DNA of 64,000 nucleotides from Candidatus Binatia bacterium (GCA_963664015.2 CAXXLF010000001.1:928001-992000), one strand, 5' to 3'; counted from the first letter of the stretch, positions 26,856 to 63,898 are shown. Numbers and translations are program-made. The notes: a model not told the origin generated them from the letters alone.

Positions 26856-26957
26856 GCTGCTCCTCCTTTCAATTCTCCAAACAAAGTCTAACATTTTAGA
26901 CCATACCGACTTTTTTTTGTCAAGCCCCCCTGGACCGTTTTTCATTAAAAACTCGCC

Positions 26958-40259: not shown

Positions 40260-41396
40260 CTAACCCTGGACGACGCTCCCTGGTAACGCCACAGGGGACA
40301 TCTGGCATGCAACGCCTGCCTCTCCCAGTGCCTCGATGAAATCTCGACGAATTTGAGGATCTTCATTTTCATAATCGATCATCGCGCCCCCTTTCTTGAT
40401 ACTGAGAACCGTAGCCCTCGTGTTGTCACGGCCGCGAAGCCCGATCCGATATTTGGCACCTCCGGTGCGAAAAGCAATGTGGCGGGCGGGTTCCCCTCCG
40501 GTATTGAAGTGTTGATGAAACCAACCATCGCCGGGACTGTAGACGGCTCCGTCACCCCAGTTGATTCGGAGCACTCGATCGCCATAGCCATCCTTGAACG
40601 GAGTGGTCCCAAACTCCTTCGGCCACATTAATACGTATCCCTTGGATCTCAAACCGAGGAGGATCGCGCCCGGCCCGTGATAGTGGGCCTTGTGATACAT
40701 CCCCACCGGCCATTGGGAGATATGCCCGGTTAGAATATTTTCCGAAATTTCGAAGCCCATGATGCTCACTCTTTCACCCTTGGGACGCTCCCGGGGATCC
40801 ACGAAGGCGTTTCTCAAATCTGGAATGAAGTTGGTCTCCCAGACCACATGTTCTCCTGCGGCCCGTTCCACCCGCTCCCCAACCTTGAAGTAATCCGACT
40901 CCCCGTTGTAACGATCCGTAAAGACAAAGCTGTCTCCAAAGACGAACTCCGGATTGTGAAAAAGATCCATAACAATGGGGGCGTTGGTTACTCCAAGGAA
41001 AATGACCGGCTCTTTGCCCACGTTGTACAGGCGATGCCATGCATTTAAAGGCGGGGCAAAGAAGCTGCCTTCGCCCCATTCGAAGCTCTTTTGGGGTTGC
41101 CCTTCCTGCCAGATCTGAGTCGCTCCCTGGCCATTTAGGATATAAATTAGCTCTTCATAGAGGTGTTTCTCAGGATTGAGAGCAGCTCCGGGCGGGATTT
41201 CTCCCACGTACATCCCGGTGAAACCGCTTTCCCTTACCCCATTGAGATAAAGAAAGGCCCCTTTTCCCCCGGTCCGGGCCCACTCCCTACGGTCGACCTT
41301 TCGGACGTCTTCGATACCCCCTTCCGCCTCTACGATGGGTATCCCCTCTCCCTTCATCCACTCCTCGTAGGACGTGGCCTCCGGGACTTTGCTCAT
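40260..41396 (-). CDS. Bicupin protein (gentisate dioxygenase-like fold); start uncertain, up to 41450
   Basis: Two cupin repeats: PEKHLYEE...PLNAWH and KAHYHGPG...WFHQHFN. Confidence 0.8.
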   Translation of the reverse strand: MSKVPEATSYEEWMKGEGIPIVEAEGGIEDVRKVDRREWARTGGKGAFLYLNGVRESGFTGMYVGEIPPGAALNPEKHLYEELIYILNGQGATQIWQEGQPQKSFEWGEGSFFAPPLNAWHRLYNVGKEPVIFLGVTNAPIVMDLFHNPEFVFGDSFVFTDRYNGESDYFKVGERVERAAGEHVVWETNFIPDLRNAFVDPRERPKGERVSIMGFEISENILTGHISQWPVGMYHKAHYHGPGAILLGLRSKGYVLMWPKEFGTTPFKDGYGDRVLRINWGDGAVYSPGDGWFHQHFNTGGEPARHIAFRTGGAKYRIGLRGRDNTRATVLSIKKGGAMIDYENEDPQIRRDFIEALGEAGVACQMSPVALPGSVVQG

Positions 41397-41474
41397 ACTA
41401 ACTGGCCTCTTCATCAAAAACTCTGTTTCAGCTCTGGACCTCCGAACCAATGATCGTCAAATGGTCACTCCTAC

Positions 41475-43128: not shown

Positions 43129-43899
43129 CTACGCAACCTTTTGCTGTTCCTGGTAACTGGCGTAAAGGGCATCCGGCCAAGGCAACATTTGACTTCCCGG
43201 CCGGGCACCTTGAACAGCCCTTTCCACCTGCACCCTCATGCCATCGTAGTCCTCTTCCTTCACCAGTCCGAGTTTGTAGAGTTTGGCCAGCAGCAGTTCG
43301 CCTTCGGGACCGTGTTCCTCTAGATCCGCCACCACATGGATATCCCAATACTCGAGTAGGTCATCGGGAATGTCATACTTCTCATGCAGGATCTCACGCC
43401 AGAACTTCATGCTGTAACCGACAAATCCTTCCAGCATCCACCGAACCGCCGTTAGTGCCGGGCTCTGGGAGCGGTACACCAAGGCCGTATTGAAACGCGC
43501 CTCCAGCTCGGCAATGGGCTTGGAAAAGAAGAGATCCTCGTCTTTCAGTCCCAGATAGTGAGCGAATTTAAGATAGGTCCGTCCATGCCCGCCGGGACGT
43601 GGGTCCGACAGTTCGGAACCGATCTTTGACGCCACAATGTCGTAGAGGTCCGGATTTCTACGCCACAGGTCCAGATAGTTCACAATGGTCCAGGTTACGT
43701 TGGTATTGGTGAGCTGGATAAATATGTAGTACTGTTTCGCGTATTCTTTTAGAAACTCCAGCGGGACTTTCCCCGCACCAAAATCGTCGTAGAATCGCCC
43801 CCGCTGTTTCCCCGTCTTAAATGGATGGTTTTCGGTCTTTACCTCAAACCACGATTTAAACGATTCGTACGTAGGAAAATTCAATTGTTCACCAGCCAT
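43129..43899 (-). CDS. Heme-oxygenase-like fold putative diiron enzyme #2 (paralog of 35747..36520)
   Basis: Same ELSDPRPGGH, MLEG and HVVADLEEH motifs; long identical peptide blocks. Confidence 0.72.
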   Translation of the reverse strand: MAGEQLNFPTYESFKSWFEVKTENHPFKTGKQRGRFYDDFGAGKVPLEFLKEYAKQYYIFIQLTNTNVTWTIVNYLDLWRRNPDLYDIVASKIGSELSDPRPGGHGRTYLKFAHYLGLKDEDLFFSKPIAELEARFNTALVYRSQSPALTAVRWMLEGFVGYSMKFWREILHEKYDIPDDLLEYWDIHVVADLEEHGPEGELLLAKLYKLGLVKEEDYDGMRVQVERAVQGARPGSQMLPWPDALYASYQEQQKVA

Positions 43900-43945: not shown

Positions 43946-44689
43946 CTACAATCCCTGATACACCCGGATCAGGTACTCTGCATATCGTTTGGCCACGTGT
44001 TGAATGCCAAAGTTGGGTCGCTCCTCGACCAGCCCTCGATCAAAAAGAGATTTGAGCAAGAACCTTCCCGGGCTCCCGTGACTCGTCAGCCAACACGCCT
44101 CCCAGTTCTCAAAATAATCCAAGGCATCCCCCTTGAGACCGAACGGAGGCTTACCGAGGGCTTCCTGAAATAGGGCGCAAAACTTCAAAAGATACTCTTC
44201 ACCGATTAGCTGTGCGGCAAACTCGGCCAATGTCCCTTCCAAGTAAACCGATTTGAGAAAACTTGTCATATGAACCGTGTAGGGTCCCGGGCGCGAGGTG
44301 AGCAGCTGCTCATGGTTCATCCCCAGGGCCCGGCCCAAGAGCAGGAGCCCTTTGACATGGCCACCGGGATACGGATAGTTGAGCGACTTCCCCGCCCGCT
44401 CGGTTACGATTTCTTCTATATCAGGATATCGCCCCAATATATAATGATGCCGCGACCAAAGCAGCGCTCGGTGCATGTCGGTTTCCTGAACGTGGTTGTA
44501 CCAGTTCCCCAGCCAACCCTTGAGCCGGTCCTCGGTCAACCGTCCTGCCCGCAGGTCTTGAAAAAACGGTAGATCGATCCATTGCTCAAACAACGGCTTT
44601 GCCTCTCGCTCCCACCAACTCTCGTAATCCGCATACGACCCCGGGCTCGACTCCGTAATGTTGGCTTCCATTAGGTAGGCCTCCTCCAT
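43946..44689 (-). CDS. TenA/heme-oxygenase-like fold protein lacking most metal ligands
   Basis: PFFQDLRAGRL start and PGGH shared with its neighbour, but the upstream Glu and the H-x3-D are replaced (YFENWEACWLTSH). Confidence 0.6.
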   Translation of the reverse strand: MEEAYLMEANITESSPGSYADYESWWEREAKPLFEQWIDLPFFQDLRAGRLTEDRLKGWLGNWYNHVQETDMHRALLWSRHHYILGRYPDIEEIVTERAGKSLNYPYPGGHVKGLLLLGRALGMNHEQLLTSRPGPYTVHMTSFLKSVYLEGTLAEFAAQLIGEEYLLKFCALFQEALGKPPFGLKGDALDYFENWEACWLTSHGSPGRFLLKSLFDRGLVEERPNFGIQHVAKRYAEYLIRVYQGL

Positions 44690-50997: not shown

Positions 50998-51246
50998 TTT
51001 CTTTCTCCTCTCGATCCTTCGGGTCCCAGTTTCAGTATCTTCCACAGTTGAACCGGCAATACTTTGAGGGAATCAACCTATGGGTATTGCAAGTCTTTTA
51101 TTCGAAAGCGGGTAGGGTGTCAACTTGGAATTGGGGCCATGTCAGGGTAGAATCGCCTACCTGCATTAGACCTTGCCGCGGGAAGTGGTTGTTGGTATGG
51201 CTATAGGCATGCGCCCAAAGTGCATTCGAATCAAAGGAGGAGCCCA

Positions 51247-52206
51247 ATGATAACTGCAAAAAATCTCCACGGATTGATGGCCATGATGCCGGCATTCGCC
51301 ACCGCCGATGCCCATGACATTAACGCCACATCGACCATCGACGTGGAGAACCTCAAGGCGAGTGTGAATCGAATGATCACCGACGGGGGCGATGTGATCG
51401 CAACCACCGGGAGCTTTGGCGAGTTTCACACTTTGCTGTGGGATGAGTTTGAGACCTTGACCCGGGCCACCGTCGAAGCCGTCAAGGGGAGGGTTCCACT
51501 CTTTATCGGTTGCACCAGCCTACACAGCAGAGAGACTATCCGAAAAATGAAGTTCATACGTGACGCAGGCGGCGAAGGGGTCCTTGTTGGCGTCCCCTTT
51601 TACTTTCCTTCGACCGTCGACAACGCGGTGCAGTTTTATCACGACATTGCCGAGCTGTTTCCCGACCTGTCCATCATGGTCTACCACAACCCGACCCTCC
51701 ACAACGTTACCTTACCGGTGGAGGCTTTTAAGAAAATCACCCAGAGCCCCAACGTCGTGGCCATGAAGGATAGCCACCGAACGACCACCGAGTTTATGAA
51801 TCTCATGGAAATCGTCCGCGGTAAGATGAGTATCTTTGTTAATCAGCTCCAATACCATCCTTTTGCTTCCCTTGGCGCCGCCGGATTCTGGTCCATCGAC
51901 TCATGGATGGGTCCCTGGCCCCTGCTCCGCCTGCGCGACGCCATCAGGGTCAACGACCTGGAAACGGCGAAACAGATCATCTTCGAGCTCGCTCCCGGTG
52001 GCGCACCACCACCGGACCTGAGGTGGCGCGAGACAGCCGCCAAGATCGCCATTCAACATGCCGGCTACTGCAATCCTGGACCGCTCCGCCCACCCTTTGT
52101 CAATATACCGGATAACGTAAAGGAGAACGTAAAAAAGCGTGCCCAATACTGGAAGGGCCTCTGTGAAAAGTACGGGCCAAAAGCAAAGGCACGAGTAACC
52201 GCTTGA
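51247..52206 (+). CDS. DapA/NAL-superfamily hydratase-aldolase, NahE-like
   Basis: AAGGAGG RBS; GSFGEFHTL, GVPFY, QFYHDIAE, YHNP, AMKDSH (Schiff-base Lys), GPLRPPF. Confidence 0.85.
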   Translation: MITAKNLHGLMAMMPAFATADAHDINATSTIDVENLKASVNRMITDGGDVIATTGSFGEFHTLLWDEFETLTRATVEAVKGRVPLFIGCTSLHSRETIRKMKFIRDAGGEGVLVGVPFYFPSTVDNAVQFYHDIAELFPDLSIMVYHNPTLHNVTLPVEAFKKITQSPNVVAMKDSHRTTTEFMNLMEIVRGKMSIFVNQLQYHPFASLGAAGFWSIDSWMGPWPLLRLRDAIRVNDLETAKQIIFELAPGGAPPPDLRWRETAAKIAIQHAGYCNPGPLRPPFVNIPDNVKENVKKRAQYWKGLCEKYGPKAKARVTA

Positions 52207-52260: not shown

Positions 52261-52782
52261 ATGGAAAGAGAACGAGTTAGAGAAAAAGAACCGGTACAGA
52301 AAGACCAGGGGAAACACTACGAAGCGACCTTGCGACTCAACGCCGAGGCCCGGGACCGCGCCAAGTCTGGCAAGATCGTGATCAAGGCTAATGAGCGTCC
52401 CTGGTACCAGTGCAGGCAAGGATTGATCCGCCAGTATCTCTCATGGCATGACATGGAAGACACCGCAGCAACCGATTGGTCGTGCTTCGTCCACGACGTC
52501 AAGCAGCACTCGGGAAGACACCGGCACCAGGGTGGATATAATCTATTCGTTCTCGAAGGTAAGGGATCAACGGAAGTGGATGGTCAGATCTTCGATTGGG
52601 AGACATGGGATTTGATTCTCCTCCCGGTAAAACCCGGCGGCTGTGTCCACAAGCACTACAATAAATTCGCCGGGAAGTCAGCCCAGTGGATGGCATTCAA
52701 ATACAACACCTTTTCTCGCGTCCTGGGCAGCATGTTCGAGCAGGTGGAAAATTCGCCCAACTGGAAGGGCACGGACAAATAG
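52261..52782 (+). CDS. 3-His monocupin paralog (tandem copy 1)
   Basis: MERERVREKEP leader, SGRHRHQGG, CVHKHYN. Confidence 0.87.
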   Translation: MERERVREKEPVQKDQGKHYEATLRLNAEARDRAKSGKIVIKANERPWYQCRQGLIRQYLSWHDMEDTAATDWSCFVHDVKQHSGRHRHQGGYNLFVLEGKGSTEVDGQIFDWETWDLILLPVKPGGCVHKHYNKFAGKSAQWMAFKYNTFSRVLGSMFEQVENSPNWKGTDK

Positions 52783-52840
52783 GATTCGGCTGATTCTAAA
52801 CCCGCCGAGACATCGGCGGTAACATCACGGAGATAGACAA

Positions 52841-53362
52841 ATGGAAAGAGAAAGAGTAAGAGAAAAAGAACCGGCTCAAAAAGACCAGGGAGAGCACTAC
52901 GAAGCGACCTTGAGGCTCAACGCCGAGGCCCGTGACCGCGCCAAGAAGGGCAAGATCGTCATCAGGGCCAAGGATCGACCGTGGGAACAGGGACGCCAGG
53001 GCCTATCCAAAACCTATCTCTTCTGGCATGGAGTCGACGACACGGCGGCCACTGACTGGACCTGTTTTATTCACGACGTCAAGACCCATTCGGGGAAGCA
53101 CCGCCACCAGGGAGGGATCCAGTTATTTGTCCTTGAGGGCGAAGGTGGCACGGAAGTGGATAATGGGACCGTGGAGTGGCAGAAATGGGATCTAATTATC
53201 CTACCCGTCAAACCCAAGGGCTGTGTGCATAAGCACTACAATAAAGTTCCGGGAACACCGGCCAAGTGGATGGCCTTTCGCTACAATCCCTTTGCCAAGG
53301 TCCTGGGAAACATGTTCGAGCAGGTCGAAGATTCTCCTGACTTCAAGGGTGGACAAAAATAG
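52841..53362 (+). CDS. 3-His monocupin paralog (tandem copy 2)
   Basis: MERERVREKEP leader, SGKHRHQGG, CVHKHYN. Confidence 0.87.
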   Translation: MERERVREKEPAQKDQGEHYEATLRLNAEARDRAKKGKIVIRAKDRPWEQGRQGLSKTYLFWHGVDDTAATDWTCFIHDVKTHSGKHRHQGGIQLFVLEGEGGTEVDNGTVEWQKWDLIILPVKPKGCVHKHYNKVPGTPAKWMAFRYNPFAKVLGNMFEQVEDSPDFKGGQK

Positions 53363-53435
53363 GCCTCGGCTTGATTCGGACTCGTGAGGCTGTCGATAGG
53401 CTGAGGCATTAGAGATAGAATAGAGGGGAAAAATT

Positions 53436-53969
53436 ATGGAGAGAGAGAGAGTAAGGGAGAAAGAACCCGTACAAAAAGATCAAGGGGAGCACTACGAAGC
53501 CACCTTGAGGCTCAACGCCGAGGCCCGGGACCGCGCCAAGTCTGGCAAAATCGTTATCAAGGCCAAGGAACGGCCGTGGCACCAAGGCCGCCAGGGATAC
53601 ACAAGGACTTATCTCTCCTGGCACGGAATGGATGATACGGCGGCAACGGACTGGACCTGCTTTATCCACGACGTCAAGGTCCATTCAGGGAAACACCGTC
53701 ACCAGGGGGGCATCCAGTTGTTTGTCCTCGAAGGGGACGGCTATACGGAGGTGGAGGGACAGAAGGTAGACTGGGAAAAATGGGATCTAATTATTCTGCC
53801 CGTCAAGCCCGACGGCTGCGTGCACAAGCACTACAACAAAGTTCCGGGAACCCCGGCAAGGTGGATGGCCTTCAGATACAACCCTTTCTCAAATGTACTT
53901 GGTAATATGTTCAATCAGGTGGAGGATTCGCCCGACTTCAAGGACGAGAAAAAGGCCTCACTTAGCTAA
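53436..53969 (+). CDS. 3-His monocupin paralog (tandem copy 3)
   Basis: MERERVREKEP leader, SGKHRHQGG, CVHKHYN. Confidence 0.87.
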   Translation: MERERVREKEPVQKDQGEHYEATLRLNAEARDRAKSGKIVIKAKERPWHQGRQGYTRTYLSWHGMDDTAATDWTCFIHDVKVHSGKHRHQGGIQLFVLEGDGYTEVEGQKVDWEKWDLIILPVKPDGCVHKHYNKVPGTPARWMAFRYNPFSNVLGNMFNQVEDSPDFKDEKKASLS

Positions 53970-53975
53970 ACCTGG

Positions 53976-54722
53976 CTAGACCTCCTTCGGCCACAGAACT
54001 TTGATCATCGCTTTCGTCGTCGACTTGATCGTCTTTCGCGGCCTCACCTGGTGTTTGTACAAAAGGAACGGCCAGGCTCGGTACGGGTTTTCGTCCTTGC
54101 CTTTGACTTGCGTAGCGTATTCCTCGGTCATGGGCTTGATCGTCGTAGAACTTGCCAGCAGCAGTTGATCCGCACAGGACCTTTCCAGCTGGATCGCGGA
54201 GACGCAGGTACCTTCTATGCTACGCGCCGTGACCACAATGCCGTGTCCCCGCAACAAAACCACCGAGTGCTGGCCCAGGCAGTCCGCCATTCTCTGAGCG
54301 AGGCCGTCGTTGTTGATGCCATTGCTATTGGGAAAGATCGGCACTCCGCCTTCAAAGGCCCGTGCCTCTCTGTGAAACGGAATAAGGCCGCCATCCAACA
54401 ACCCGACCATGATCGCATAACGGGCGTGACAGTGAAGGACACTCACCACGTCCGGTCTGTTTCTATAAATGGTGCTATGAATGGTGGTTTCCAGCGGGAT
54501 GGGTTCGGAGCCGGCGATCCGGTTTCCCGACAGATCCACCGTGCAGATGTCTTTGAAGTCGGCGAGGATTCCAGCGTACCTGGGGTTAATCAAGAAGGAA
54601 TCGGTACCCGGGATTCGGACGCTCAAATGGCCCGATCCGGTGAGAACCCCCTCTCCGGTCAACACTTTGATCCCATCGAGGAGACGGTTCTTAAGGTTTT
54701 TTACCTCGGTCAGTTTGGCCAT
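53976..54722 (-). CDS. Class II aldolase/adducin family protein
   Basis: GHLSVR, ETTIH, RPDVVSVLHCH, LLRGHG. Confidence 0.88.
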   Translation of the reverse strand: MAKLTEVKNLKNRLLDGIKVLTGEGVLTGSGHLSVRIPGTDSFLINPRYAGILADFKDICTVDLSGNRIAGSEPIPLETTIHSTIYRNRPDVVSVLHCHARYAIMVGLLDGGLIPFHREARAFEGGVPIFPNSNGINNDGLAQRMADCLGQHSVVLLRGHGIVVTARSIEGTCVSAIQLERSCADQLLLASSTTIKPMTEEYATQVKGKDENPYRAWPFLLYKHQVRPRKTIKSTTKAMIKVLWPKEV

Positions 54723-54787
54723 GACCTGAGCCCCCTTTCGCGGAACGTGATTTCATCCCATTAAAAACGCAGGCTTTCCCTTTTGGA

Positions 54788-56947
54788 TCAACCTGCCGAC
54801 GCCTCTTTATTTTGCCCCTGGTAAAACTCCCGGGCAATTTCCAAGTCAACCAGAGCCTTTAGAAAATGGCTGGCCTCGAGCACCTCGGCCCCTTTGTAAC
54901 CGGAATCCTTCAGGGCATTGAGTTGAGCATCATTGCACAGGGAATCGAGCTCAGCGCCTGAAAATCCATCGGTCTTTTGCGCCACCTCAGCGACAACCTT
55001 CTTCCGGGTGGCATCGTCCTTGAAGGGAGTCTTCTTGAGTTTGGACTCCATGATGGCCTTGCGATCGGCCAAGTCGGGTAGAGGCACATAAATATGTATT
55101 CCAAACCGCCCGGGCCGAAGGATAGCGGGATCCAGAAGATCCAACCGATTGGTTGCCGCAACAACAATAATGCGGCCAAAGCTCTCAATGGAGTCCATTT
55201 CCATCAAAATCTGATTGACCACGCGCTCCGCCGCCTTGGTGTCGCTGTCACCGCGACGGTTGGGGGCAATGGCATCGATTTGATCGAAGAAGATTACAGC
55301 CGGGGCGACCTGCCTGGCCACTTGAAAGGCGTGGCGAACACTCTCTTCGGATTCGCCCAGCCATTTGCTGAAGACCTCGGGACCCCGAATATAGAGGAAG
55401 TTCGCTCCCGACTCCCGGGCGATGGCCTTGGCTAGAAGGGTCTTTCCCGTCCCCGGGGGGCCGTAGAGGAGGATTCCACTGGGCGGCCGGATTCCCATGG
55501 CACGGAAGGGTTCGGGGTTGGTCAGCGGCTTTTCCACCAGGTCGCGAAGTTTTTCCTTAACGCTTTCCATCCCGCCGATATCATCCCACCCAACGTCCGG
55601 AATACTTGTGATGGTTTCTCGCATGGCGGAGGGACGGATAAGACCCGTCGCCTTCATAAAGTCATCACCGGTAACCACCAAATCGTCAAGACTTACCTTG
55701 AACCGAGCGGGCGAGAGGCGACGATCCCCCATGATTCTTCTCAGGCAGTTAAGACCAGCCTCACGGCACAGCTCCATCAGGTCCGCCCCAACAAAGCCGT
55801 GGGTAATTCGTGCCACCTCCCTCAATGTCTCAAAAATTCCTTCCGCGAGGGGCATGCCCCGACTATGGATCTGTAATATTTCCAATCTCCCTTCAGTATC
55901 GGGAGGTCCCATGAAGATCTCCCTATCGAATCGGCCAGGACGCCGTATGGCCTTATCCAGAGTTTCCACCCTATTAGTGGTCCCCAGCACCATGACTCCC
56001 TCTACTTTGTTAAGCCCATCCATCAGCTCCAACAGCTGGCCAACCATCCGGGTATCCGAATGGGAACCGCTCTCGCCCCGGATAGGCGCGATGGCGTCCA
56101 CCTCGTCAATAAAAATGATCGAGGGGAGATGATGGGACGCCTCCTCAAAGATCTTACGCAAGTTAGCTTCCGTCTCACCATATACCGAACTCACGATATC
56201 GGGACCATTGATATAAAGAAATTTTGCATTGATCTCATTGGCAATGGCTCGCGCCGTGTGACTCTTCCCGCTTCCCGGAGGTCCGTACAGGATAATCCCC
56301 CGAGGCGGATTAATACCAAGGTGACGAAAAACATCCGGAAAGAGCAAGGGAAGTTCCACCAGCTCTCGAATAAGACCGATTTCCTTTTGGAGTCCTCCAA
56401 CGTCTTCAAAGGTGACCTGATCCGAGACCACGCCCCATGATGAGAAGACATAATCCAGGTCAAGTTTTGTTTCTGCTGTCATCAAGCCCGCTTCCGGCTC
56501 GATTTCGGTGACCTTGAATGCGGTCCCCTGAGTCTGCCCCGGTAATGTCGCGTAGAGGACCTGGCCGTCGCTAACGAGCAAACCCTTGGAGGCAAAATTC
56601 TTGATCAGATAGGCATCGACCCCTTTGACGTCCGAGATGTTGACGAAGGGCGCCAAGGTGACCTTGCTTACCGTCTTCATCTGGATCGGAACGACCGAAA
56701 CCCAGTCGCCCAGAAGGCTCTTGGTTGAATGCCTGAGGTACTGGTCCATGCGGATGAGCTTCCTTCCCTTATCCCCCTCCTGCGGTTTGGCCACTCGCGC
56801 CAGAACACTTCGGCCGCTGTTAGTCTCGACCTCAATGGCATCGTCCACCTTGATGCCGTCTTTCTCCATCACCTCCGGATCGATCAAAACCCGCCCCTGT
56901 GCACTATAGACAGCGGGACACTCTTCTACTTGCAAAAATACTGCCAT
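54788..56947 (-). CDS. Cdc48/VAT-type double-ring AAA+ ATPase
   Basis: N-domain, D1 GPPGSGKS/FIDEVD/RRPGRFD, D2 GPPGTGKT/FFDQID/LRPGRF. Confidence 0.92.
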   Translation of the reverse strand: MAVFLQVEECPAVYSAQGRVLIDPEVMEKDGIKVDDAIEVETNSGRSVLARVAKPQEGDKGRKLIRMDQYLRHSTKSLLGDWVSVVPIQMKTVSKVTLAPFVNISDVKGVDAYLIKNFASKGLLVSDGQVLYATLPGQTQGTAFKVTEIEPEAGLMTAETKLDLDYVFSSWGVVSDQVTFEDVGGLQKEIGLIRELVELPLLFPDVFRHLGINPPRGIILYGPPGSGKSHTARAIANEINAKFLYINGPDIVSSVYGETEANLRKIFEEASHHLPSIIFIDEVDAIAPIRGESGSHSDTRMVGQLLELMDGLNKVEGVMVLGTTNRVETLDKAIRRPGRFDREIFMGPPDTEGRLEILQIHSRGMPLAEGIFETLREVARITHGFVGADLMELCREAGLNCLRRIMGDRRLSPARFKVSLDDLVVTGDDFMKATGLIRPSAMRETITSIPDVGWDDIGGMESVKEKLRDLVEKPLTNPEPFRAMGIRPPSGILLYGPPGTGKTLLAKAIARESGANFLYIRGPEVFSKWLGESEESVRHAFQVARQVAPAVIFFDQIDAIAPNRRGDSDTKAAERVVNQILMEMDSIESFGRIIVVAATNRLDLLDPAILRPGRFGIHIYVPLPDLADRKAIMESKLKKTPFKDDATRKKVVAEVAQKTDGFSGAELDSLCNDAQLNALKDSGYKGAEVLEASHFLKALVDLEIAREFYQGQNKEASAG

Positions 56948-57055
56948 GAAAACTCCTCCCTAACCTTTCAAAATAATCATCTTTTAAAAACACTTCAGGT
57001 ACGCCCATGCGCGCACGATCTCACACCAACCTCCTGCCACCATCGGCCGGATTCA

Positions 57056-58615
57056 TCAACGGAATACCAGCGAGCGAACGACCACCGGGACCTCCGTATC
57101 ATGACCGACCTCTCCCACTTCGATGAAGTCCATGTCATGGGAGTGGAAGCCGCTGAGTCCGACGATTGGGGTATGGGCCGAATCTTCAGAGGCCATCTTT
57201 TTTGCAATGGCACAGGCTGCCGCTGTCTCCCCCACCAGGACCAAGGGTAAATCCCGATTCCACGGCACAAGCGTAGCGGCCAGTCCGGCCGCGATCGCAT
57301 CATAGGACGACTCCTCATCGGCATAATCCAAGGACAGGGCAAAAGGCTGATCCGAACCGGTCAGAGAATCGAACCGGGACAGGGCCTCCTCAACGTCCCT
57401 TTGAGCCTGGGCCGAATCGCTCAGTCCCTGCGGGAATTTGGGAGCCACCACCATGAGATTTTTGAAGACATGCAAGTGGCCATGAGAACAAAAGATGGAG
57501 TCGAGAGGCAAATGGACCGAATAAGTCGCCACGCCGACGGGCGTAGCACGTAACCGGCTGACCGGCGTCAATACCCCCATCTTTACCCCGAGCCTCGGAG
57601 CACGCTTCCGGATCGTGGTGCCCCAATCAAAACCCACATCCGCCCCCGGTTCGGTTTCATATCCATAGACGTATTCAGCCACCCCACCAGAGAACTGCAG
57701 ATAATCGATATTTTCCAACGATGGCGGAGGTGACGGAAAAACAATCTTCCCCTCTTCCGAGACCCCCTCCCCTTCCAGGTAGTCTAGCAGCGTCTCGCCC
57801 AGGAATCGGCCGACCGCCTGCTTATGGGACCGAGTAACCGGTTGACCTATCTGCAGATTCAAACCCAATTGAGAGACAATTCTCTGCCCCGTCTCATCCA
57901 GATGGCTTAGCATTCCCTGTTCGTCGATGCCAAGCACTTTGGCCCCTACCGAAGTTGAATAAAAGCTTTCGAAAGAACCATTGGCAATCCAGGCAAATCG
58001 GGCCCCTTCCGCGCCCAGGTCCACATTGAGGACTCGCTTCTTCTCGTTGCCTGATTTATCGACGGCCCCCGCCCCAAAGGCGGCCAGCATCCCCTGGATT
58101 TTTGACTTTTCTGTTATGAATAGAAAGCGAGCTACCTCCCGGCCAAAGACCTCCTCGATGACAGGACGGCTCTTGGAATCGGCAGCTTTCCCGCTCACAA
58201 CCACCACACCGGTTTGGATCAGATCGGCAATCAAGCGTGCCTCATCGTAGCAACGGTGAAGGAAGGCCTTCAGCTGCTCTCCATCAAGCACCCCATCCGC
58301 ACGATAGGGGGTTGGCAGCACAGGTGACTCGTAAAAGACCTCTTTCGTCTTGACCACCGACCTGCTGGTCAGGTTGTGCCCCCCCTTCCGTAACACGAGC
58401 CGGCTCAATTGGAGATGGGTCGTTGCGGATCCGATGTGGAACCCTCCACTGGTCACATTGGCCAGATCCGCTTTCCCGTGGAGAAATTCCTCGCCGAGAA
58501 CAATGTCCAATGCCTCCGAGAATTCGTCCTCGTCCCAGTGCCCATCATGAAGATCCCATATGGGGAACGGCAACTGGACGATGGGCCTTCCAATTTGGAG
58601 GTTATTCAAAATCAT
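57056..58615 (-). CDS. EutA (ethanolamine ammonia-lyase reactivase)-like protein with degenerate ATPase motifs
   Basis: HIGSATTHLQLSRL, YESPVLPTPY, TGVVVVSG, FSGGVAEYVY, LRATPVG, VPVVVRSLVF follow the EutA layout. Confidence 0.75.
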   Translation of the reverse strand: MILNNLQIGRPIVQLPFPIWDLHDGHWDEDEFSEALDIVLGEEFLHGKADLANVTSGGFHIGSATTHLQLSRLVLRKGGHNLTSRSVVKTKEVFYESPVLPTPYRADGVLDGEQLKAFLHRCYDEARLIADLIQTGVVVVSGKAADSKSRPVIEEVFGREVARFLFITEKSKIQGMLAAFGAGAVDKSGNEKKRVLNVDLGAEGARFAWIANGSFESFYSTSVGAKVLGIDEQGMLSHLDETGQRIVSQLGLNLQIGQPVTRSHKQAVGRFLGETLLDYLEGEGVSEEGKIVFPSPPPSLENIDYLQFSGGVAEYVYGYETEPGADVGFDWGTTIRKRAPRLGVKMGVLTPVSRLRATPVGVATYSVHLPLDSIFCSHGHLHVFKNLMVVAPKFPQGLSDSAQAQRDVEEALSRFDSLTGSDQPFALSLDYADEESSYDAIAAGLAATLVPWNRDLPLVLVGETAAACAIAKKMASEDSAHTPIVGLSGFHSHDMDFIEVGEVGHDTEVPVVVRSLVFR

Positions 58616-58876
58616 CTCTGCCTTCTCACTGGCGGGCTTGATACGAATCTAGCCCCATGTGCATTTCCCCACCCTCAACCTTAATTCCATCGAGCACCAG
58701 CAGCATGGGAATCCTTGGGCCACAATTTTTTGTCATTGGATCGGGGACAGGACGAAAACGGGAAGCGGCAATGCCACAAGACCCCAGAAGCGCTGGCAAA
58801 GCATAGGGTGCCAGCACTATCGGGCGATCAAGCAGCCGCACGCTTCCCGCTCGGAAACGGCTGAAGGTGATAAACC

Positions 58877-59362
58877 CTAACCGGCCTGATACTCGGGACA
58901 AGCCTCGAGCTGCTCGAAACCGGACCCCATGTCCACTCCGAAGATGTCGAAAAAATTGGGCATGGCAGCCACAAGCATTACAGGCTTTTCCGGGTTCGAA
59001 TTATAATGCTGGTATTCCAGCCCATCCGGTAGAAATGGCAATGCCACCACATCCCCGGCTTCCCAGTCATGTTTCACGCCGTCGACGATGGTGTACCCTT
59101 CCCCTTCCAGAATGTGGTGAACGATTCCGCCCTGCACTTTCTGCTTGCCACTGCGGCTACCCGGAGGGATCTCCTGCATGAAAAACAGATGAGCAGGACT
59201 GGCGATATCCTCGATATCCGGATGGAGGTACCACTTGATCTTGCCATGCTTATTGACTTCCCACTTGAGATCACTAAATCTAATCAGCGACCGTGCACCT
59301 TCCATCTTTTTGCGCCACGCATCCCGCTTTTCGAGTAACTTCTCGAGTAAATCTTTTGCCAT
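58877..59362 (-). CDS. Cupin homologous to the paralog family but lacking the metal-binding His residues
   Basis: SGKQKVQGG in place of SGKHRHQGG, and LEYQH in place of CVHKH. Confidence 0.82.
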   Translation of the reverse strand: MAKDLLEKLLEKRDAWRKKMEGARSLIRFSDLKWEVNKHGKIKWYLHPDIEDIASPAHLFFMQEIPPGSRSGKQKVQGGIVHHILEGEGYTIVDGVKHDWEAGDVVALPFLPDGLEYQHYNSNPEKPVMLVAAMPNFFDIFGVDMGSGFEQLEACPEYQAG

Positions 59363-59402
59363 CAGAGAACCTCCATGTTTATTCCTTTTTTGTTTTTAAA
59401 GC

Positions 59403-59930
59403 TTACGCAGACTTTTTCTCTTCCTTGAAATCCGGCGAGTCTTCCACCTGTTCAAACATATTGCCCAGGACCTTGGAAAAAGGATTGTACCTGAAGGCCA
59501 TCCACTTGGCCGGCGTTCCCGGAACTTTATTGTAGTGCTTGTGGACGCAGCCTTTGGGTTTAACCGGCAAGATGATGAGATCCCATTTTTGCCAATCTAC
59601 CGTACTACCATCCACCTCGGTAGCCCCGTCACCTTCAAGAACAAACAGCTGAATTCCACCCTGATGCTTGTGTTTGCCCGAGTGCTGTTTGACGTCGTGA
59701 ATAAAGCAGCTCCAATCGGTTATTGCCGTGTCACTGATGCCGTGCCAGGAAAGATAGGTCCGAATAAGTCCTTGCCGGCCCTGATGCCAGGGGCGCTCCT
59801 TGGCCTTGATCACGATCTTGCCTGTCTTGGCTTTTTCCCGTGCCTCCGCGTTGAGCCTCAAGGTGGCTTCGTAATGTTCCCCCTGGTCTTTCTGTACGGG
59901 TTCTTTTTCTCTAACCCTTTCTCTCTCCAT
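59403..59930 (-). CDS. 3-His monocupin paralog (operon copy)
   Basis: AAGGAG RBS, MERERVREKEP, SGKHKHQGG, CVHKHYN. Confidence 0.87.
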   Translation of the reverse strand: MERERVREKEPVQKDQGEHYEATLRLNAEAREKAKTGKIVIKAKERPWHQGRQGLIRTYLSWHGISDTAITDWSCFIHDVKQHSGKHKHQGGIQLFVLEGDGATEVDGSTVDWQKWDLIILPVKPKGCVHKHYNKVPGTPAKWMAFRYNPFSKVLGNMFEQVEDSPDFKEEKKSA

Positions 59931-60092: not shown

Positions 60093-61514
60093 TTAACCCC
60101 ATGGCTCGATGGGAATTCGATCCCACTGCTCCCGACTCAAGAGTTTCAGGGGGTCGATTTTCTCTAGCACATCAGACGGTATTGAAAGGCGCTCCGCAAA
60201 GGCCGAGCCCAACGGCTTCGTGCAGTCGAAACCGACCTTGGTCGTGGTCGTTCCATCCAGAGAGCTCGGGTCCAGCACGCCTCCGGTCAGTCCAGGTAAC
60301 ACAATAAGTCCGCGATCGGCCTGGAAACGCATCGCCATGGCCAGTAAAATCTCTTTCTCATCGAAGATGTCCACGTCCTCGTCAAATACGAAGACGTGCT
60401 TGTGGCCGAAGGAAGCCGACAGGGCCGCCACGGCGGCAACCTTTCCCTGCCCCTCTACGGTCTTACGGATCTGAACGTAAACATGCATGCATCCTCCACC
60501 CGACATGGGAAGGTGCACCGCACGAGCCCCGGGCACCACGCTTCGCACCGCCCTTAGAACTTCGCCTTCCTTGTTGAGACTGCTGATCCAATGGGTGTGA
60601 CCCACCATGACATTGTCCCAATAGGCATGGCGACGACGGGTGATAGCGGTCACCTTGAACGTCGGGTTCCATCGCTGCGGCCCCACGTAGCGGGTAAATT
60701 CGCCAAAGGGACCCTCCGGCCTACGGTGCCCCTTGGGGACGAATCCTTCGATGACAACTTCCGCATCGGCCGGGACCAGGAAGTCGTCCCCCAGGGTCTC
60801 GGAAGGAACGAGACGAACCGGCGACCCAAGGGTCCCCCCTGCCGCCTCGTAATGACTCTCATCGGGTCCTACATGGCTAGCGGCACCCAGCAAGACCAGC
60901 GGGTGGTGCCCCACCCAGTAAGCTGCCGGCATATCTTCGCCCGCCGCTTCGTATTCCCGGAGATTATGGGCATTGTGGGAGTTCCGCCCCAAAAATACCC
61001 GAATTTCATTTTGGTTGAATAACCATCCCCGATGCATCGCCGAGTTGTCCAGCCGGGACTCCAAGTTATGGGTGAGAAACAACCCTTCGGTAATGTACCG
61101 TCCGGGATCCATGCGGTGGTGGAGGGGCGCAGGGAACCGGCGGACATCCACATCAGATCCCTTTTCCACCACCTCTTTAACCGGCGCCTCGTTACGGGCA
61201 ACCACCACCGGCTTGCGTCTTTCCTGTACCCGCTCATAGCAGGCCACTCCCGCCTGCTGGACATCCGCTCCCAGGGCGCGAGCCAGGCGAATGCGGCTGG
61301 CCATAAGAAAAGTGACCAGCGGCATCTCCATCCGTTGCCCGTCCACTATAACGTTATGGCAAACGAGCACAGGGAAACGCTTTGCCTTTTCAAACTTGGT
61401 GGCCAATGCGGTAATCTCCCAGGCCGCATTCAGGGGCTCCTCGATATGCACCACCTCATCGGGGTAGTCCTTCTCGTATTGGTCCAAATAGGAATGCAAG
61501 TCATACTGACTCAT
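60093..61514 (-). CDS. UbiD family decarboxylase #4
   Basis: DLHSYLD, DPGRYIT, AMHRG, EGPFGEFTRY, LDPS, VGFDCT; start set at the ATG at 61514. Confidence 0.88.
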   Translation of the reverse strand: MSQYDLHSYLDQYEKDYPDEVVHIEEPLNAAWEITALATKFEKAKRFPVLVCHNVIVDGQRMEMPLVTFLMASRIRLARALGADVQQAGVACYERVQERRKPVVVARNEAPVKEVVEKGSDVDVRRFPAPLHHRMDPGRYITEGLFLTHNLESRLDNSAMHRGWLFNQNEIRVFLGRNSHNAHNLREYEAAGEDMPAAYWVGHHPLVLLGAASHVGPDESHYEAAGGTLGSPVRLVPSETLGDDFLVPADAEVVIEGFVPKGHRRPEGPFGEFTRYVGPQRWNPTFKVTAITRRRHAYWDNVMVGHTHWISSLNKEGEVLRAVRSVVPGARAVHLPMSGGGCMHVYVQIRKTVEGQGKVAAVAALSASFGHKHVFVFDEDVDIFDEKEILLAMAMRFQADRGLIVLPGLTGGVLDPSSLDGTTTTKVGFDCTKPLGSAFAERLSIPSDVLEKIDPLKLLSREQWDRIPIEPWG

Positions 61515-61630
61515 AGCTAGACTCCCTAAAAAGCCACTCAACCTCTATTATAGTGGGCTTTGGTTGATAACCGACACGACTCCACCTGTTATATCCCCAG
61601 CATTTCCAATGATTCAATGAATGACTGGGT

Positions 61631-62809
61631 TCAACGTGAATCGGGTTGAGAGGCGAGTACCACGTTTTGATCCGCCAACCCTATCGGCGTCACCCACTGT
61701 TTGAGCGGAAGTCCCGCCCCATAGGCCCCGAGCTCACGCTCCCAAATCTTTCGTATGAAGACCAGCCCGATATCGTTCGGAACCAGTCGTTCATTGGTGC
61801 GATCGGGGATGGCGCCCTGACCAACCAGAGTTACGTAATCCTCCACCCAGAAAGAGTAGTATGTTGGTGTTTCCCGATCCATGTCCTCGATACGAGCCTT
61901 CCCCGCAAGCACGGCCTCAGCTATATCGTTCGGCGATTGGCTCATAGTGGCCCGAGCCTGTTGCCGGCGTTCCTGATACCGACCGGCCGCCTCTCCCGTC
62001 AGCGGGATCCAGTCTACGATGAAGGTCACGTTGCTTTCGTCGTCGATGGGAACATGCATCAAATAGCGATCCACAAACAAGTTCTTCACGTCTTCCAGGG
62101 AACCTTCCACCCGAGCTCGAGAACGCGACTGGATAACATTCGGCATATGAAAATGGATGTATTGCACCGGTGCTCCAGGGACATTGGACCCCATTCTGCA
62201 CCCGTACTCGGTCTCCTCCGCAGACACCTTGCGCGGGACGAGACGGTCCGTTTGCCCCGCCCGCGATAAGGACTCACGATGGACGAAGGGCACGTGAGCC
62301 GGATCGTTTTCAATCCGGTTAAAGTAGTTGCACGGCCAGATCTCCGGGGTCCCCGCCTCCAAGATACCTGGCCTCTCCATATCTGGGTACCGTCGTAACG
62401 GCGGAGGCTCCCCTTCACCTAGGTAGGCAAAGATAAGCCCCAGATATTCCTGCGTGGGGTAGCTGCGGATCTTCACTTTGGGCCCATTGGATTCCTCTTC
62501 CCCAGGTTGCTCGACACATTGTCCAGAACCGTCGTACTTCCAGCCATGGTAACGGCACCGGACGCAATCCCCCTCCACCCAACCGGTGGCTAGTTGAGTC
62601 CCCCGATGGGCGCAACGAAAGGCCACCACATAGGGCGTCCCGGTCTCGCCCCTGTAAAGAGTGAACCACTCGCTCATGATTTGAATTGGGACTATCTTCC
62701 CTGACGGTAAATCCTGAGCTCGATAGACCGGTTGCCAGAACCTCCGCAGGTAACTGCCAGCCATCGTGCCAGGGCCGGTTCGTGCAAAATCAATAGACGC
62801 ATCACTCAT
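61631..62809 (-). CDS. Rieske oxygenase (LigXa/phthalate dioxygenase-like alpha3 type)
   Basis: TGPGTMAGSYLRRFWQP, CAHRG...CRYHGW, ENDPAHVPFVH, VEDYVTLVGQG. Confidence 0.88.
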   Translation of the reverse strand: MSDASIDFARTGPGTMAGSYLRRFWQPVYRAQDLPSGKIVPIQIMSEWFTLYRGETGTPYVVAFRCAHRGTQLATGWVEGDCVRCRYHGWKYDGSGQCVEQPGEEESNGPKVKIRSYPTQEYLGLIFAYLGEGEPPPLRRYPDMERPGILEAGTPEIWPCNYFNRIENDPAHVPFVHRESLSRAGQTDRLVPRKVSAEETEYGCRMGSNVPGAPVQYIHFHMPNVIQSRSRARVEGSLEDVKNLFVDRYLMHVPIDDESNVTFIVDWIPLTGEAAGRYQERRQQARATMSQSPNDIAEAVLAGKARIEDMDRETPTYYSFWVEDYVTLVGQGAIPDRTNERLVPNDIGLVFIRKIWERELGAYGAGLPLKQWVTPIGLADQNVVLASQPDSR

Positions 62810-62857: not shown

Positions 62858-63898
62858 TCAGCCCAAAATCTCCCCAACTTTATAAAATCTCTTGGCGTTA
62901 CCACCCAGGAGCGCGGCCTTGTGCTCTGCCTTGATATCTTTGCGCTCCAAGATTTCGTCGATTTCACCCATGGCGTTGTCAACGGCGATCTCGTGGGGAA
63001 AGTCCGAGGCGAACATAAACGGTTCGGGACCTACCCTCTCGATGGAATAGGCTAGGGCCGTTTCATTACCTTCACATCCAACGAAGATCTTTCCGCAACG
63101 GAAATAATCGGCCGGGGCACGTCCGAGATTTAGGCTCCCATATTCGACCTCCCGCGCCAGCCGGTCAATGACCAAGGGGATCCAGCTGGTCCCGCCTTCC
63201 ATGAAGCCGACCCTCAGATTGGGGAAGCGATCGAACACGCCGTCGGCGATCATTCCCGTCGTCGCTATGGCCAGGGGGAAAGGCATGCCGAGGGCCCGGG
63301 TCGGTGGAAAGACCGTAAAGGTGTTGAATCCCAGGTCGATGTAACTTCCACCGTGAACCGCCATGACACAGTCCAGTTTCTCCGCCTCCTCATAGATCGG
63401 CCAAAACTCTTTGGCACTGATATGCTTTTTGAGACCGTTAGACGGGATCATGGCGCCAACCATCCCCAGTTCCTTGACCGACCGTCTCAACTCTACCACG
63501 GCAGCAGAGGGATCCTGCATGGGAATCAATGCCACCGCCTTAAAGCGGGGGCTGAACTTCAGGTATTTCTCATACATCCAATTGTTATACGCCTTGGCAA
63601 AGACTATCGCCCAGTCCGGATAGACAACATGGCCATAGGCCAAACCCAGTGTCGGAAATAAGACGGAACATTCGGTCTCTGTCTTATCGAGAAACTCAAG
63701 CCAACGTTCTGGCCCGACGCTGGGATCAAATGTCCCCGGTTGGCGCGGCCGAGCATTCGGAGTATGGAACTCGTCCAGACTAGGCAGCATGAGCCGTGAC
63801 GAGATGTACCGATCGTTAAACGGGGCTTCAATGAACTCGTTAAGCTCTTGCTCGTTTTCCATCACGTGCCCATCGGCATCAATATATCCTTTTCCCAT
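62858..63898 (-). CDS. Amidohydrolase_2 family protein (ACMSD/LigW/LigJ-like decarboxylase or hydratase)
   Basis: IDADGH, AYNNW, AVHG, FDRFPNLRVGFMEGG, FASDFPH. Confidence 0.87.
   Translation of the reverse strand: MGKGYIDADGHVMENEQELNEFIEAPFNDRYISSRLMLPSLDEFHTPNARPRQPGTFDPSVGPERWLEFLDKTETECSVLFPTLGLAYGHVVYPDWAIVFAKAYNNWMYEKYLKFSPRFKAVALIPMQDPSAAVVELRRSVKELGMVGAMIPSNGLKKHISAKEFWPIYEEAEKLDCVMAVHGGSYIDLGFNTFTVFPPTRALGMPFPLAIATTGMIADGVFDRFPNLRVGFMEGGTSWIPLVIDRLAREVEYGSLNLGRAPADYFRCGKIFVGCEGNETALAYSIERVGPEPFMFASDFPHEIAVDNAMGEIDEILERKDIKAEHKAALLGGNAKRFYKVGEILG

Follow-up and report, generated by a model that had tools for sequence, protein, structure and literature searches.

Why would a bacterium keep a Cdc48-like ATPase next to a pair of small cupins? 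The question is raised by a stretch of 64,000 nucleotides (nt) from the genome of a Candidatus Binatia bacterium (GCA_963664015.2), in which positions 52261-59930 encode four short cupins with a three-histidine (3-His) metal site, one cupin in which these histidines are replaced, an EutA-like protein, a double-ring AAA+ ATPase of the Cdc48 type and a class II aldolase-family protein. We will call the whole stretch (C1:928001-992000 of a two-contig, 3.51 Mb genome that is 97% complete) the window, the 3-His cupins alpha and the cupin with replaced histidines beta; coordinates are collected in Table 1. An initial annotation, made from the DNA alone, described these eight genes and proposed that alternative metal-binding subunits dock on a single His-less subunit, with the EutA-like and Cdc48 proteins as joint machinery for assembly, repair or exchange. 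All eight genes are arranged as it described and belong to the families it named, and both of the further genes that it mentioned, a fifth alpha at 25.5 kb and a bicupin at 40.3 kb, are real. We suggest that alpha and beta would make up a heteromeric split-bicupin oxygenase with a dedicated AAA+ remodeller encoded beside beta, a reading to which we give a probability of about 0.55.

Two halves of a bicupin in separate genes

The four alphas of the locus share 73-87% identity with one another and possess the H-x-H motif as well as the third histidine. Residues H87, H89, H130 and H132 are invariant in all 15 aligned alphas, which come from four phyla. Beta has Q-K-V and Y at the positions where alpha has H-x-H and H, so the label "His-less" is correct for it. 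Betas from other phyla have no more than one of these three histidines (Q-K-H ... F), and a C-terminal motif of beta, GVDMGSGFEQLE, is almost invariant between phyla.

What are these two proteins related to? A profile dominated by alphas matches the N-terminal cupin domain of the solved structure 3bu7 (residues 101-193, E = 7e-14) and also 2phd and 2d40. The beta profile matches the C-terminal cupin domain of solved gentisate dioxygenases (3bu7 residues 276-364, E = 1.5e-19). The same two halves are found joined in nature. A fused bicupin of 364 amino acids (aa) in the same genome resembles alpha in its N-terminal half (35% identity) and beta in its C-terminal half (49%); a fused 369-aa protein at locus L033 has corresponding halves (38% and 43%) and the same charged leader that is found in alpha; and all 11 of the longer beta homologues are bicupins, of 287-401 aa. 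Judged by these comparisons, alpha and beta are homologous to the two domains of one gentisate-dioxygenase-type bicupin, and the split bicupin of the initial annotation is borne out by profiles and by natural fusions. They are not gentisate dioxygenase itself, because the gentisate 1,2-dioxygenase equivalog TIGR02272 gives only 16-20 bits for alpha and 21.6 for beta, where the cut-off is 442. In the window alpha-4 and beta are separate genes with 40 nt between them. The ratio of non-synonymous to synonymous rates (dN/dS) of beta is about 0.02-0.04, with dS saturated. We infer from the domain correspondence that alpha and beta form a heteromer.

A further hint of a partner comes from the charged leader with which alpha begins (MERERVREKEP...). 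The AlphaFold2 model renders it as low-confidence helices, and it recurs in related form in Chloroflexi and Betaproteobacteria, with or without Cdc48 nearby. Among the paralogues of the window, leader codons 1-36 differ by 1-4 non-synonymous and 6-12 synonymous changes, codons 37-170 by 18-42 non-synonymous and 33-57 synonymous ones. From these counts the leader is more constrained than the catalytic body, and its similarity is not due to recent gene conversion. Such constraint fits a shared partner, which might be beta, the EutA-like protein or Cdc48. A complex prediction with four chains (beta, alpha, residues 46-519 of the EutA-like protein, and the Cdc48 N-domain as the scored partner) gave 0.00 against a mark of 0.32; this is a "no answer" and counts neither way.

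Many alphas, few betas

The initial annotation counted one His-less cupin for five metal-binding ones. The first number stands, for the genome has a single stand-alone beta, but the second has to be raised, since there are ten full-length alphas with 61-100% identity to the query alpha. A broken copy, in three frame pieces with TGA stops, lies outside the window at C1:627375-627892. The other alphas of the genome stand in catabolic clusters of their own, with Rieske, UbiD and amidohydrolase genes and with no beta there. A similar excess of metal-binding subunits over His-poor partners, claimed for this genome by the initial annotation, turned up elsewhere: stand-alone alphas outnumber betas 10:1 in this genome, two relatives have ratios of 10:1 and 9:1, and a metagenome-assembled genome (MAG) of Chloroflexi has one of about 19:3-4. 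With a ratio so unequal, beta must serve several alphas in trans, or else most alphas function in its absence.

Beta itself is rarely found far from an alpha. In a scan that took one genome per species, it adjoins alpha in 12 of 12 loci outside close relatives (from Binatia, Chloroflexi/Dehalococcoidia, Elusimicrobia and Betaproteobacteria), and several of these have two or three alphas per beta. We also scanned metagenomes with the beta alignment and took the best 80 of 241 relatives, referred to below as the 80 metagenome loci. In 56 of them the distance from beta to an alpha is at most 400 nt, and 66 have an alpha anywhere in the locus; the 14 loci that lack one are contigs of about 4 kb or shorter. 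The calling of open reading frames (ORFs) in foreign loci was naive, and wrong-strand ORFs were picked in those of high GC content.

Two loci from another genus, L013 and L014, keep the whole run, with identities of 80-83% for alpha, 89% for beta, 64-66% for the EutA-like protein, 88% for Cdc48 and 79% for the aldolase, and L065 is likewise syntenic. Because the arrangement is syntenic in two other genomes and recurs between phyla, it is far beyond chance.

An ATPase linked to the cupins

The ATPase matches PF02359 with 46.2 bits (against 35.1) and PF00004 in two stretches with 288.6 bits; TIGR01243 is not reached (729.5 bits, cut-off 802.65). It is the one full-length Cdc48 of the genome, where AAA matches are otherwise only FtsH-like. 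Full-length homologues were found in 6 of the 41 genomes of the order. All six carriers are among the 17 genomes with a member of the beta family, and the other 24 have no carrier, a count in which kin are not independent. We also considered that Cdc48 might be a housekeeping gene; its absence from all 18 genomes of family f3 rules this out.

Where else is the ATPase found beside these cupins? The order alpha-beta-Cdc48 is seen in three of three betaproteobacterial MAG loci. TctC receptors and an AMP-binding enzyme also follow alpha-beta-Cdc48 on the same strand in the betaproteobacterial loci L058 and L059. Among Binatia of family f2, four of four full-length homologues (about 50% identity) come directly after fused bicupins or bicupin arrays, with no EutA-like gene. 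Two f2 loci have four to five tandem fused bicupins (373-389 aa) directly upstream of one Cdc48 (L035:11130-15781 and L036:1669-8880), and such arrays are the fused counterpart of "many cupins, one ATPase".

In 23 of the 80 metagenome loci Cdc48 lies on the same strand no more than 500 nt downstream of beta. An EutA-like gene separates beta and Cdc48 in two close relatives, L064 and L065, and seven loci (L078, L089, L090, L110, L127, L132 and L140) have beta and Cdc48 in other arrangements. Neighbour clustering of 23 Cdc48 loci revealed no recurrent partner besides cupins, Cdc48 and UbiD. On the beta tree the link to Cdc48 needs at least nine changes among 53 labelled rows; therefore it is dispersed over the beta family and does not mark one recent lineage. 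The gene linkage between Cdc48 and cupins is conserved: as the initial annotation would lead one to expect, the cupin pair or its fused form and Cdc48 are linked in distant Binatia, in Betaproteobacteria and in metagenomes. We infer from this linkage that Cdc48 acts on the cupins.

A clade without the second Walker-B glutamate

The linked ATPases have a peculiarity of their own. In the window protein the Walker B motif of the first ring (D1) is canonical, IIFIDEVDA, and that of the second ring (D2) reads VIFFDQIDA, with D-Q for D-E. Aromatic pore loops are kept in both rings of the cupin-linked proteins. Every linked copy with a readable D2 has lost the Walker-B glutamate; most read D-Q, with exceptions in L033 (E-Q), L086 (D-H) and L132 and L140 (both D-N), and D1 reads D-E in all. 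The D2 of unlinked double-AAA paralogues (L037-L040, L147 and L148) reads D-E.

A tree was built from 142 rows, 30 of them from the loci and the window and 112 from database representatives of 600-900 aa. One branch of 41 rows, with a Shimodaira-Hasegawa-like support of 99, contains all 23 cupin-linked ATPases, one from Chloroflexi with no cupin seen nearby, and 17 representatives, and none of the 41 has the D2 glutamate. How frequent is this loss? The glutamate is missing in 20 of the 150 best representatives from a set of 1.8 billion proteins, including 9 of the top 14. On the evidence of the alignment and the tree, the cupin-linked proteins are a distinct Cdc48 subfamily in one clade. A D2 of this kind probably does no more than bind ATP and keep the ring assembled.

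ATPases that dock to the proteasome do so with a tail of the hydrophobic-Tyr-X (HbYX) motif. The window protein ends in ...NKEASAG and has no HbYX-like tail. The genome has a single match to the proteasome family PF00227 and no 20S proteasome pair; we read that match as HslV-like, since an E. coli control matches too.

In two contigs from Chloroflexi MAGs a D-Q Cdc48 gene precedes a UbiD gene of the same strand, immediately in L150 and at a distance of about 3 kb in L151. Because this ATPase adjoins UbiD, UbiD or the whole pathway could be the client, and UbiD may belong to the same functional unit as the D-Q Cdc48.

A second module with EutA-like proteins

The tie of both Cdc48 and EutA-like proteins to cupins stands insofar as the gene order is conserved across lineages; that they are one obligate machine does not. 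Where Cdc48 accompanies alpha/beta, there is almost everywhere no EutA-like gene, and canonical EutA-like proteins accompany other bicupins without Cdc48. With alpha/beta, an EutA-like gene is seen only in close Binatia relatives (the window, L013, L014, L064 and L065) and once in L085.

The window EutA-like protein matches PF06277 over residues 53-518 (193.6 bits, cut-off 27) and stays below the EutA equivalogs of NCBIfam (at most 138 bits, cut-offs 598-952). In it and its two orthologues the Asp of the phosphate-1 motif of the ASKHA fold is replaced by His, DTGA by QTGV and, in the phosphate-2 motif, DxGGGT by DLGAEGA (GAEG for GGGT). All 14 of the other aligned paralogues have canonical motifs. 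Since phosphate-binding motifs are lost, the ATP-driven reactivase role that the initial annotation had in mind is doubtful for this protein. It is nevertheless maintained by purifying selection (dN/dS about 0.08-0.10, dS saturated). Its AlphaFold2 model has a mean predicted local distance difference test score (pLDDT) of 82.8, and the best fold matches are Ppx/GppA, PilM and DnaK, with low TM-scores. We regard it as a putative lineage-specific, ATPase-dead addition, possibly an adaptor.

What, then, do the canonical EutA-like proteins do? EutB (PF06751) had no match in the 97%-complete genome, where an E. coli control was matched and EutC was not searched for. The genome has seven EutA-like paralogues. 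Four of the six other than that of the window immediately follow a fused bicupin gene of the same strand, as do 13 of 18 sampled from five other genomes. These bicupins are of the subfamily of the 40.3 kb gene; their motif pattern differs from that of alpha/beta, and no Cdc48 accompanies them. Cultured Alphaproteobacteria have the pair too: a plasmid of Phyllobacterium zundukense carries, in this order, a Rieske oxygenase, a ferredoxin, a class II aldolase, a 412-aa cupin and a protein annotated as "EutA", and Sinorhizobium has the same bicupin-EutA core with a class II aldolase family gene alongside. A bicupin and an EutA-like gene, often with a class II aldolase-family gene, form a second recurrent module.

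The remaining 5 of the 18 adjoin genes for a protein of about 200 aa and one of about 1100 aa. This bicupin-less group is conserved across the order (C2:1065566-1070024, which is L157, and L015, L021, L025, L027 and L031). The smaller neighbour has a metallo-beta-lactamase fold (PF14597) in our genome, and the larger one, a divergent protein that the EutA-like gene faces, is 590 aa there by ORF call. Outside the window, at C2:1746163-1754780 (L156), genes for an OprB-type porin, NikR (PF08753, 90 bits) and a ZnuA-type metal-binding protein come within 3.5 kb after a bicupin-EutA-like pair; the matching locus of a related genome, L018, also has a ZnuA homologue at its edge.

The hypothesis and what weighs against it

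How might such a set of proteins work? Alpha would be the catalytic 3-His subunit, with paralogues scattered through aromatic-catabolic clusters, and beta the single metal-poor subunit. The Cdc48-like ATPase would be a dedicated AAA+ remodeller of the cupin oxygenase, with D1 as its motor. It would engage the alpha/beta complex through its N-domain, either directly or, in the lineage of the window, by way of the ATPase-dead EutA-like adaptor. ATP would then be spent to pull the complex apart or to open it, and as an outcome alpha may be assembled, loaded with metal, freed from a dead state or replaced. The genes point to an enzyme with a dedicated AAA+ helper, which is apparently undescribed for cupin oxygenases. 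A search of full-text literature, in which few subscription journals were covered, yielded no publication that links EutA or Cdc48 with cupin dioxygenases.

A bolder version can be imagined, in which the oxygenase is hot-swappable. About ten alphas, each encoded in a catabolic operon of its own, would time-share one structural beta, and the D2-dead Cdc48, in this lineage with the EutA-like protein as an adaptor, would strip one alpha off the shared beta to make room for another or to dispose of a dead one. We know of no counterpart to such a scheme among ring-cleaving enzymes, and we consider it rather unlikely.

Several observations weigh against the hypothesis of a split-bicupin oxygenase with its own remodeller. 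Taken as single sequences, alpha-1 to alpha-4 (23.2-24.2 bits) and beta (26.4) score just below the Pfam cut-off for Cupin_2 (PF07883, 27.2), which only alpha-5 passes with 29.7. The AlphaFold2 model of alpha is poor (pLDDT 63, with most of the N-terminal 71 residues below 50), and we judged it unfit for a fold search. Many of the metagenome loci are close kin and so not independent, and neighbours in foreign loci were named by tblastn with the window proteins and not by hidden Markov models. Cdc48 is not obligatory for alpha/beta: 11 of the 17 beta-positive genomes of the order have no Cdc48 of the cupin-linked type, and of the 49 metagenome loci whose sequence extends downstream of beta for 1200 nt or more, 13 have Cdc48 directly after beta and 36 do not. 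In Chloroflexi alpha/beta lies about 4 kb from the D-Q Cdc48 of L150, and none was seen within 14 kb of that in L151. Fusions that would speak for a physical association did not turn up: there is no beta-AAA fusion among the 11 longer beta homologues and no bicupin-EutA fusion; in the long open frames around some EutA-like matches, a stop codon or a different frame separates the two genes. The Cdc48 and beta trees were made with FastTree and carry long-branch warnings, which in the Cdc48 tree lie elsewhere than in the 41-row branch. Support for transcription from contigs of RNA libraries, described below, is weak, and carry-over of DNA is possible.

Other explanations

Could the helpers serve the metal rather than the subunits? 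If the cupins were nickel or cobalt enzymes, the Cdc48-like and EutA-like proteins could be maturation factors that open the apo-enzyme for insertion of the metal, with beta as an assembly partner comparable to the beta-like activator of cobalt nitrile hydratase; this would be a specific version of the hypothesis above. A NicO (PF03824) nickel/cobalt transporter gene does follow alpha-beta-Cdc48 on the same strand in L058 (14784-15593) and L059 (3457-4266), with a gap of 47 nt in the latter; on the Phyllobacterium plasmid the bicupin-"EutA" pair is followed by a HoxN/NixA transporter and NikR, and in our own genome NikR and a ZnuA-type binding protein come 3.5 kb after a bicupin-EutA pair. The solved relatives, however, carry the annotation of gentisate dioxygenase, an Fe(II) enzyme, and the nickel link is limited to three lineages. 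Searches for NicO, HoxN and NikR with phmmer and tblastn found matches in L058, L059, L153 and, for NikR, our genome and in none of the other loci, about 140 in number, where the only further match was the ZnuA-type one of L018; our genome has no PF03824 match, and the Sinorhizobium locus is without HoxN. There are precedents: nickel quercetinase is a cupin (PMC4416304), and cobalt nitrile hydratase is reported to mature via an activator-alpha complex (PMC3511329). On balance we find nickel or cobalt maturation doubtful, if worth keeping in mind.

Beta, and perhaps alpha too, might instead be no enzyme at all and present substrates to, or regulate, a general Cdc48 unfoldase for regulated degradation or quality control of proteins. 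It is indeed the catalytically degenerate protein, beta, whose gene is coupled most closely to Cdc48, being directly upstream of it in 23 of 80 loci, and the near-invariance of GVDMGSGFEQLE between phyla would suit this reading. Against this, alpha keeps an invariant 3-His cupin site and its paralogues sit within Rieske/UbiD/amidohydrolase clusters far from Cdc48; most beta-bearing genomes and loci lack the ATPase; and a degradative role agrees poorly with an ATPase that has no C-terminal hydrophobic-Tyr-X tail in a genome with one PF00227 match, probably HslV-like. A purely adaptor or regulatory part for the cupins seems improbable to us. Still less credit can be given to the idea that Cdc48 and EutA-like genes are mere passengers on catabolic islands, with clients of an unrelated kind. 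The window does form such an island, dense and with massive paralogy (50-67 tblastn high-scoring segment pairs, HSPs, for each of the Rieske, UbiD and amidohydrolase queries), and in such regions neighbours recur by chance more frequently than elsewhere. Yet the adjacency persists at about 50% Cdc48 identity, and the neighbour is invariably the same small cupin pair, whether in families of Binatia, in Betaproteobacteria or in the many lineages from metagenomes; the linked ATPases are one clade with a shared derived motif; and a bicupin stands directly upstream of EutA-like genes in 13 of 18 cases in other genomes and 4 of 6 in this one. Mere hitch-hiking is thus very improbable.

The surroundings of the locus

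The run on the minus strand, from Amidohydrolase_2 through Rieske, UbiD, alpha, beta, EutA-like and Cdc48 to the aldolase, is co-directional with gaps of 40-261 nt, and it converges, with 6 nt between, on a plus-strand operon of DHDPS and three alphas (Table 1). The order DHDPS-alpha-alpha is also syntenic in L043 and L044. UbiD and the aldolase gene are each syntenic in L013, L014 and L065, and UbiD is present in 16 of the 80 metagenome loci. Among the better named NCBIfam matches of the aldolase-family protein is 3,4-dihydroxyphthalate decarboxylase (83 bits, cut-off 200), and the protein is probably a decarboxylase or aldolase of the pathway. Like the Rieske, UbiD and amidohydrolase proteins, it would be an ordinary pathway enzyme that supplies the ring-cleaving step. 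Elsewhere the window is dense in aromatic catabolism, with more Rieske alpha and beta subunits, UbiD, CoA-transferases and ABC transport.

Table 1. Genes of the locus and related genes of the window (positions counted from the first letter of the window)
Feature	Position	Strand	Basis or remark
alpha-1, 3-His cupin, 173 aa	52261-52782	+	ORF, family search, metal-site alignment
alpha-2, 3-His cupin, 173 aa	52841-53362	+	ORF, family search, metal-site alignment
alpha-3, 3-His cupin, 177 aa	53436-53969	+	ORF, family search; 87% identity to alpha-4
alpha-4, 3-His cupin, 175 aa, MERERVREKEP leader	59403-59930	-	Corresponds to N-terminal (metal) domain of gentisate-dioxygenase-type bicupin
beta, His-less cupin, 161 aa	58877-59362	-	Corresponds to C-terminal domain of bicupin; sole stand-alone copy in genome
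EutA-family (ASKHA-fold) protein, 519 aa, degenerate nucleotide-binding motifs	57056-58615	-	PF06277, 193.6 bits
Cdc48-like double-ring AAA+ ATPase, 719 aa	54788-56947	-	CDC48_N and two AAA domains
Class II aldolase/adducin-family protein, 248 aa	53976-54722	-	PF00596 (Aldolase_II), 111 bits
DHDPS-family protein heading the tandem alpha array	51220-52206	+	PF00701, 112 bits
UbiD-family decarboxylase, directly upstream of alpha-4, same strand	60093-61541	-	Family assignment
Rieske oxygenase, same co-directional run	61631-62809	-	Family assignment; syntenic in L014
Amidohydrolase_2 protein, same co-directional run	62858-63898	-	Family assignment; syntenic in L014
alpha-5, 3-His cupin, 182 aa, separate catabolic cluster	25498-26046	+	Cupin_2 29.7 bits; 66-67% identity to alpha-4
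Fused bicupin, 396 aa, other subfamily than alpha/beta	40260-41450	-	Family assignment; 31-48% identity to four EutA-linked bicupins

For all five genes from alpha to the aldolase dN/dS is well below 1. The dS of Cdc48 in comparisons of the window with L014 and L065 is 0.9-1.2, against 2-3 in its four neighbours at a similar dN/dS; codon constraint or recent exchange may be the reason. Scans for promoters and terminators gave no more sites than shuffled sequence, an Rfam scan gave zero matches, and the only repeats that a repeat search found are the alpha paralogues themselves. Contigs from four metatranscriptome libraries, of four studies, match alpha and beta at 92-100% identity, and in two of the four there are also contigs that match the EutA-like, Cdc48 and aldolase genes. 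None of the RNA-library contigs spans a gene junction with at least 31 letters to each side, and the stretches left uncovered are uninformative.

Some features of the genome and the window stand apart from these subjects. Paralogy is extreme for a genome of 3.5 Mb: the numbers of tblastn HSPs, which are not gene counts, are 62-67 for two Rieske queries, 64 for Amidohydrolase_2, 51-54 for UbiD and 51 for the bicupin. Among Rieske and transport genes, two PF14518 proteins ("iron-containing redox enzyme", haem-oxygenase-like) and one of the TENA/PQQC family are encoded at 35747-36520, 43129-43899 and 43946-44689. The ORFs at 21846-22952 (368 aa) and 26475-26945 (156 aa) have zero Pfam matches at E 1e-5; the former shares 140 nt with the adjacent Rieske ORF, and for that reason the start of the former, or its reality, is in doubt.

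Implications of the hypothesis

If correct, the hypothesis would provide the first physiological client of a bacterial Cdc48-type ATPase outside proteasome contexts. It would also mean that the cupin oxygenases of widespread, uncultured aromatic degraders (Binatia, Chloroflexi and some Betaproteobacteria) can be heteromeric, and that ring-cleaving cupin oxygenases appear to need Cdc48-like or EutA-like ATP-dependent helpers. This would bear on their heterologous expression and on the loading or repair of their metal sites, and hundreds of "EutA" and "Cdc48" annotations in these genomes would turn out to be mislabelled. The natural change of the D2 Walker-B glutamate to glutamine marks a monophyletic group, and it is the same change that has been engineered in laboratories as a substrate trap.

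Comparison with known systems

The best solved relatives of the cupins are the gentisate/salicylate 1,2-dioxygenases (3bu7, 2d40 and 2phd), whose N-terminal domain resembles alpha, in which H-x-H ... H is kept, and whose C-terminal domain resembles beta. They differ in that here there are two genes, a very unequal ratio of the subunits and a TIGR02272 score far below the cut-off, and we know of no accessory ATPase for gentisate or salicylate dioxygenases. Ring-cleaving dioxygenases made of a catalytic and a non-catalytic subunit are known in PnpCD and HapCD, the hydroquinone 1,2-dioxygenases, and alpha and beta would resemble them in this respect. At the sequence level their family appears unrelated to alpha/beta, as no PnpCD/HapCD-type chain is among the PDB matches of either cupin profile at E of 1 or less (for beta, the best 60 of 64). 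Our search of full-text literature found nothing on two-subunit hydroquinone dioxygenases.

With Cdc48, VAT and p97 the window ATPase shares the N-domain, two AAA rings, Walker A and B of D1 and aromatic pore loops in both rings. Unlike them it is bacterial, belongs to a clade that has lost the D2 Walker-B glutamate throughout, has no HbYX-like tail, is encoded in a genome with no 20S proteasome pair and is tied genomically to one small enzyme. In NSF one ring is the motor, and D2 binds nucleotide and does not hydrolyse it. The motifs suggest a similar division here, D1 looking like a motor and D2 like a nucleotide-binding, non-hydrolysing ring. EutA and the diol-dehydratase reactivases share PF06277 and the ASKHA fold with our EutA-like proteins, whose canonical paralogues come directly after a partner enzyme; that partner is a bicupin and not a B12 enzyme, there is no eutB in the genome, and the window copy is without the phosphate-binding motifs.

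The Rubisco activases Rca, CbbX and CbbQ/O are AAA+ enzyme activases encoded beside their client. The likeness lies in an ATPase gene conserved beside one enzyme across lineages, with the gene product presumed to be a remodeller, as far as genes can tell; the differences are a double-ring, Cdc48-type clade and a cupin oxygenase as the supposed client. Cobalt nitrile hydratase has an unrelated fold, and to our knowledge its activator is not an AAA+ ATPase. It is likewise a heteromeric metalloenzyme, one whose metal-binding subunit goes through a helper complex, and genes for a nickel/cobalt transporter or regulator are near the cupins in three lineages. Its maturation is described as "self-subunit swapping" via an activator-alpha complex (PMC3511329). 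By analogy, cobalt nitrile hydratase would be the closest precedent for the idea of subunit exchange, and the AAA+ activases would come closest in logic.

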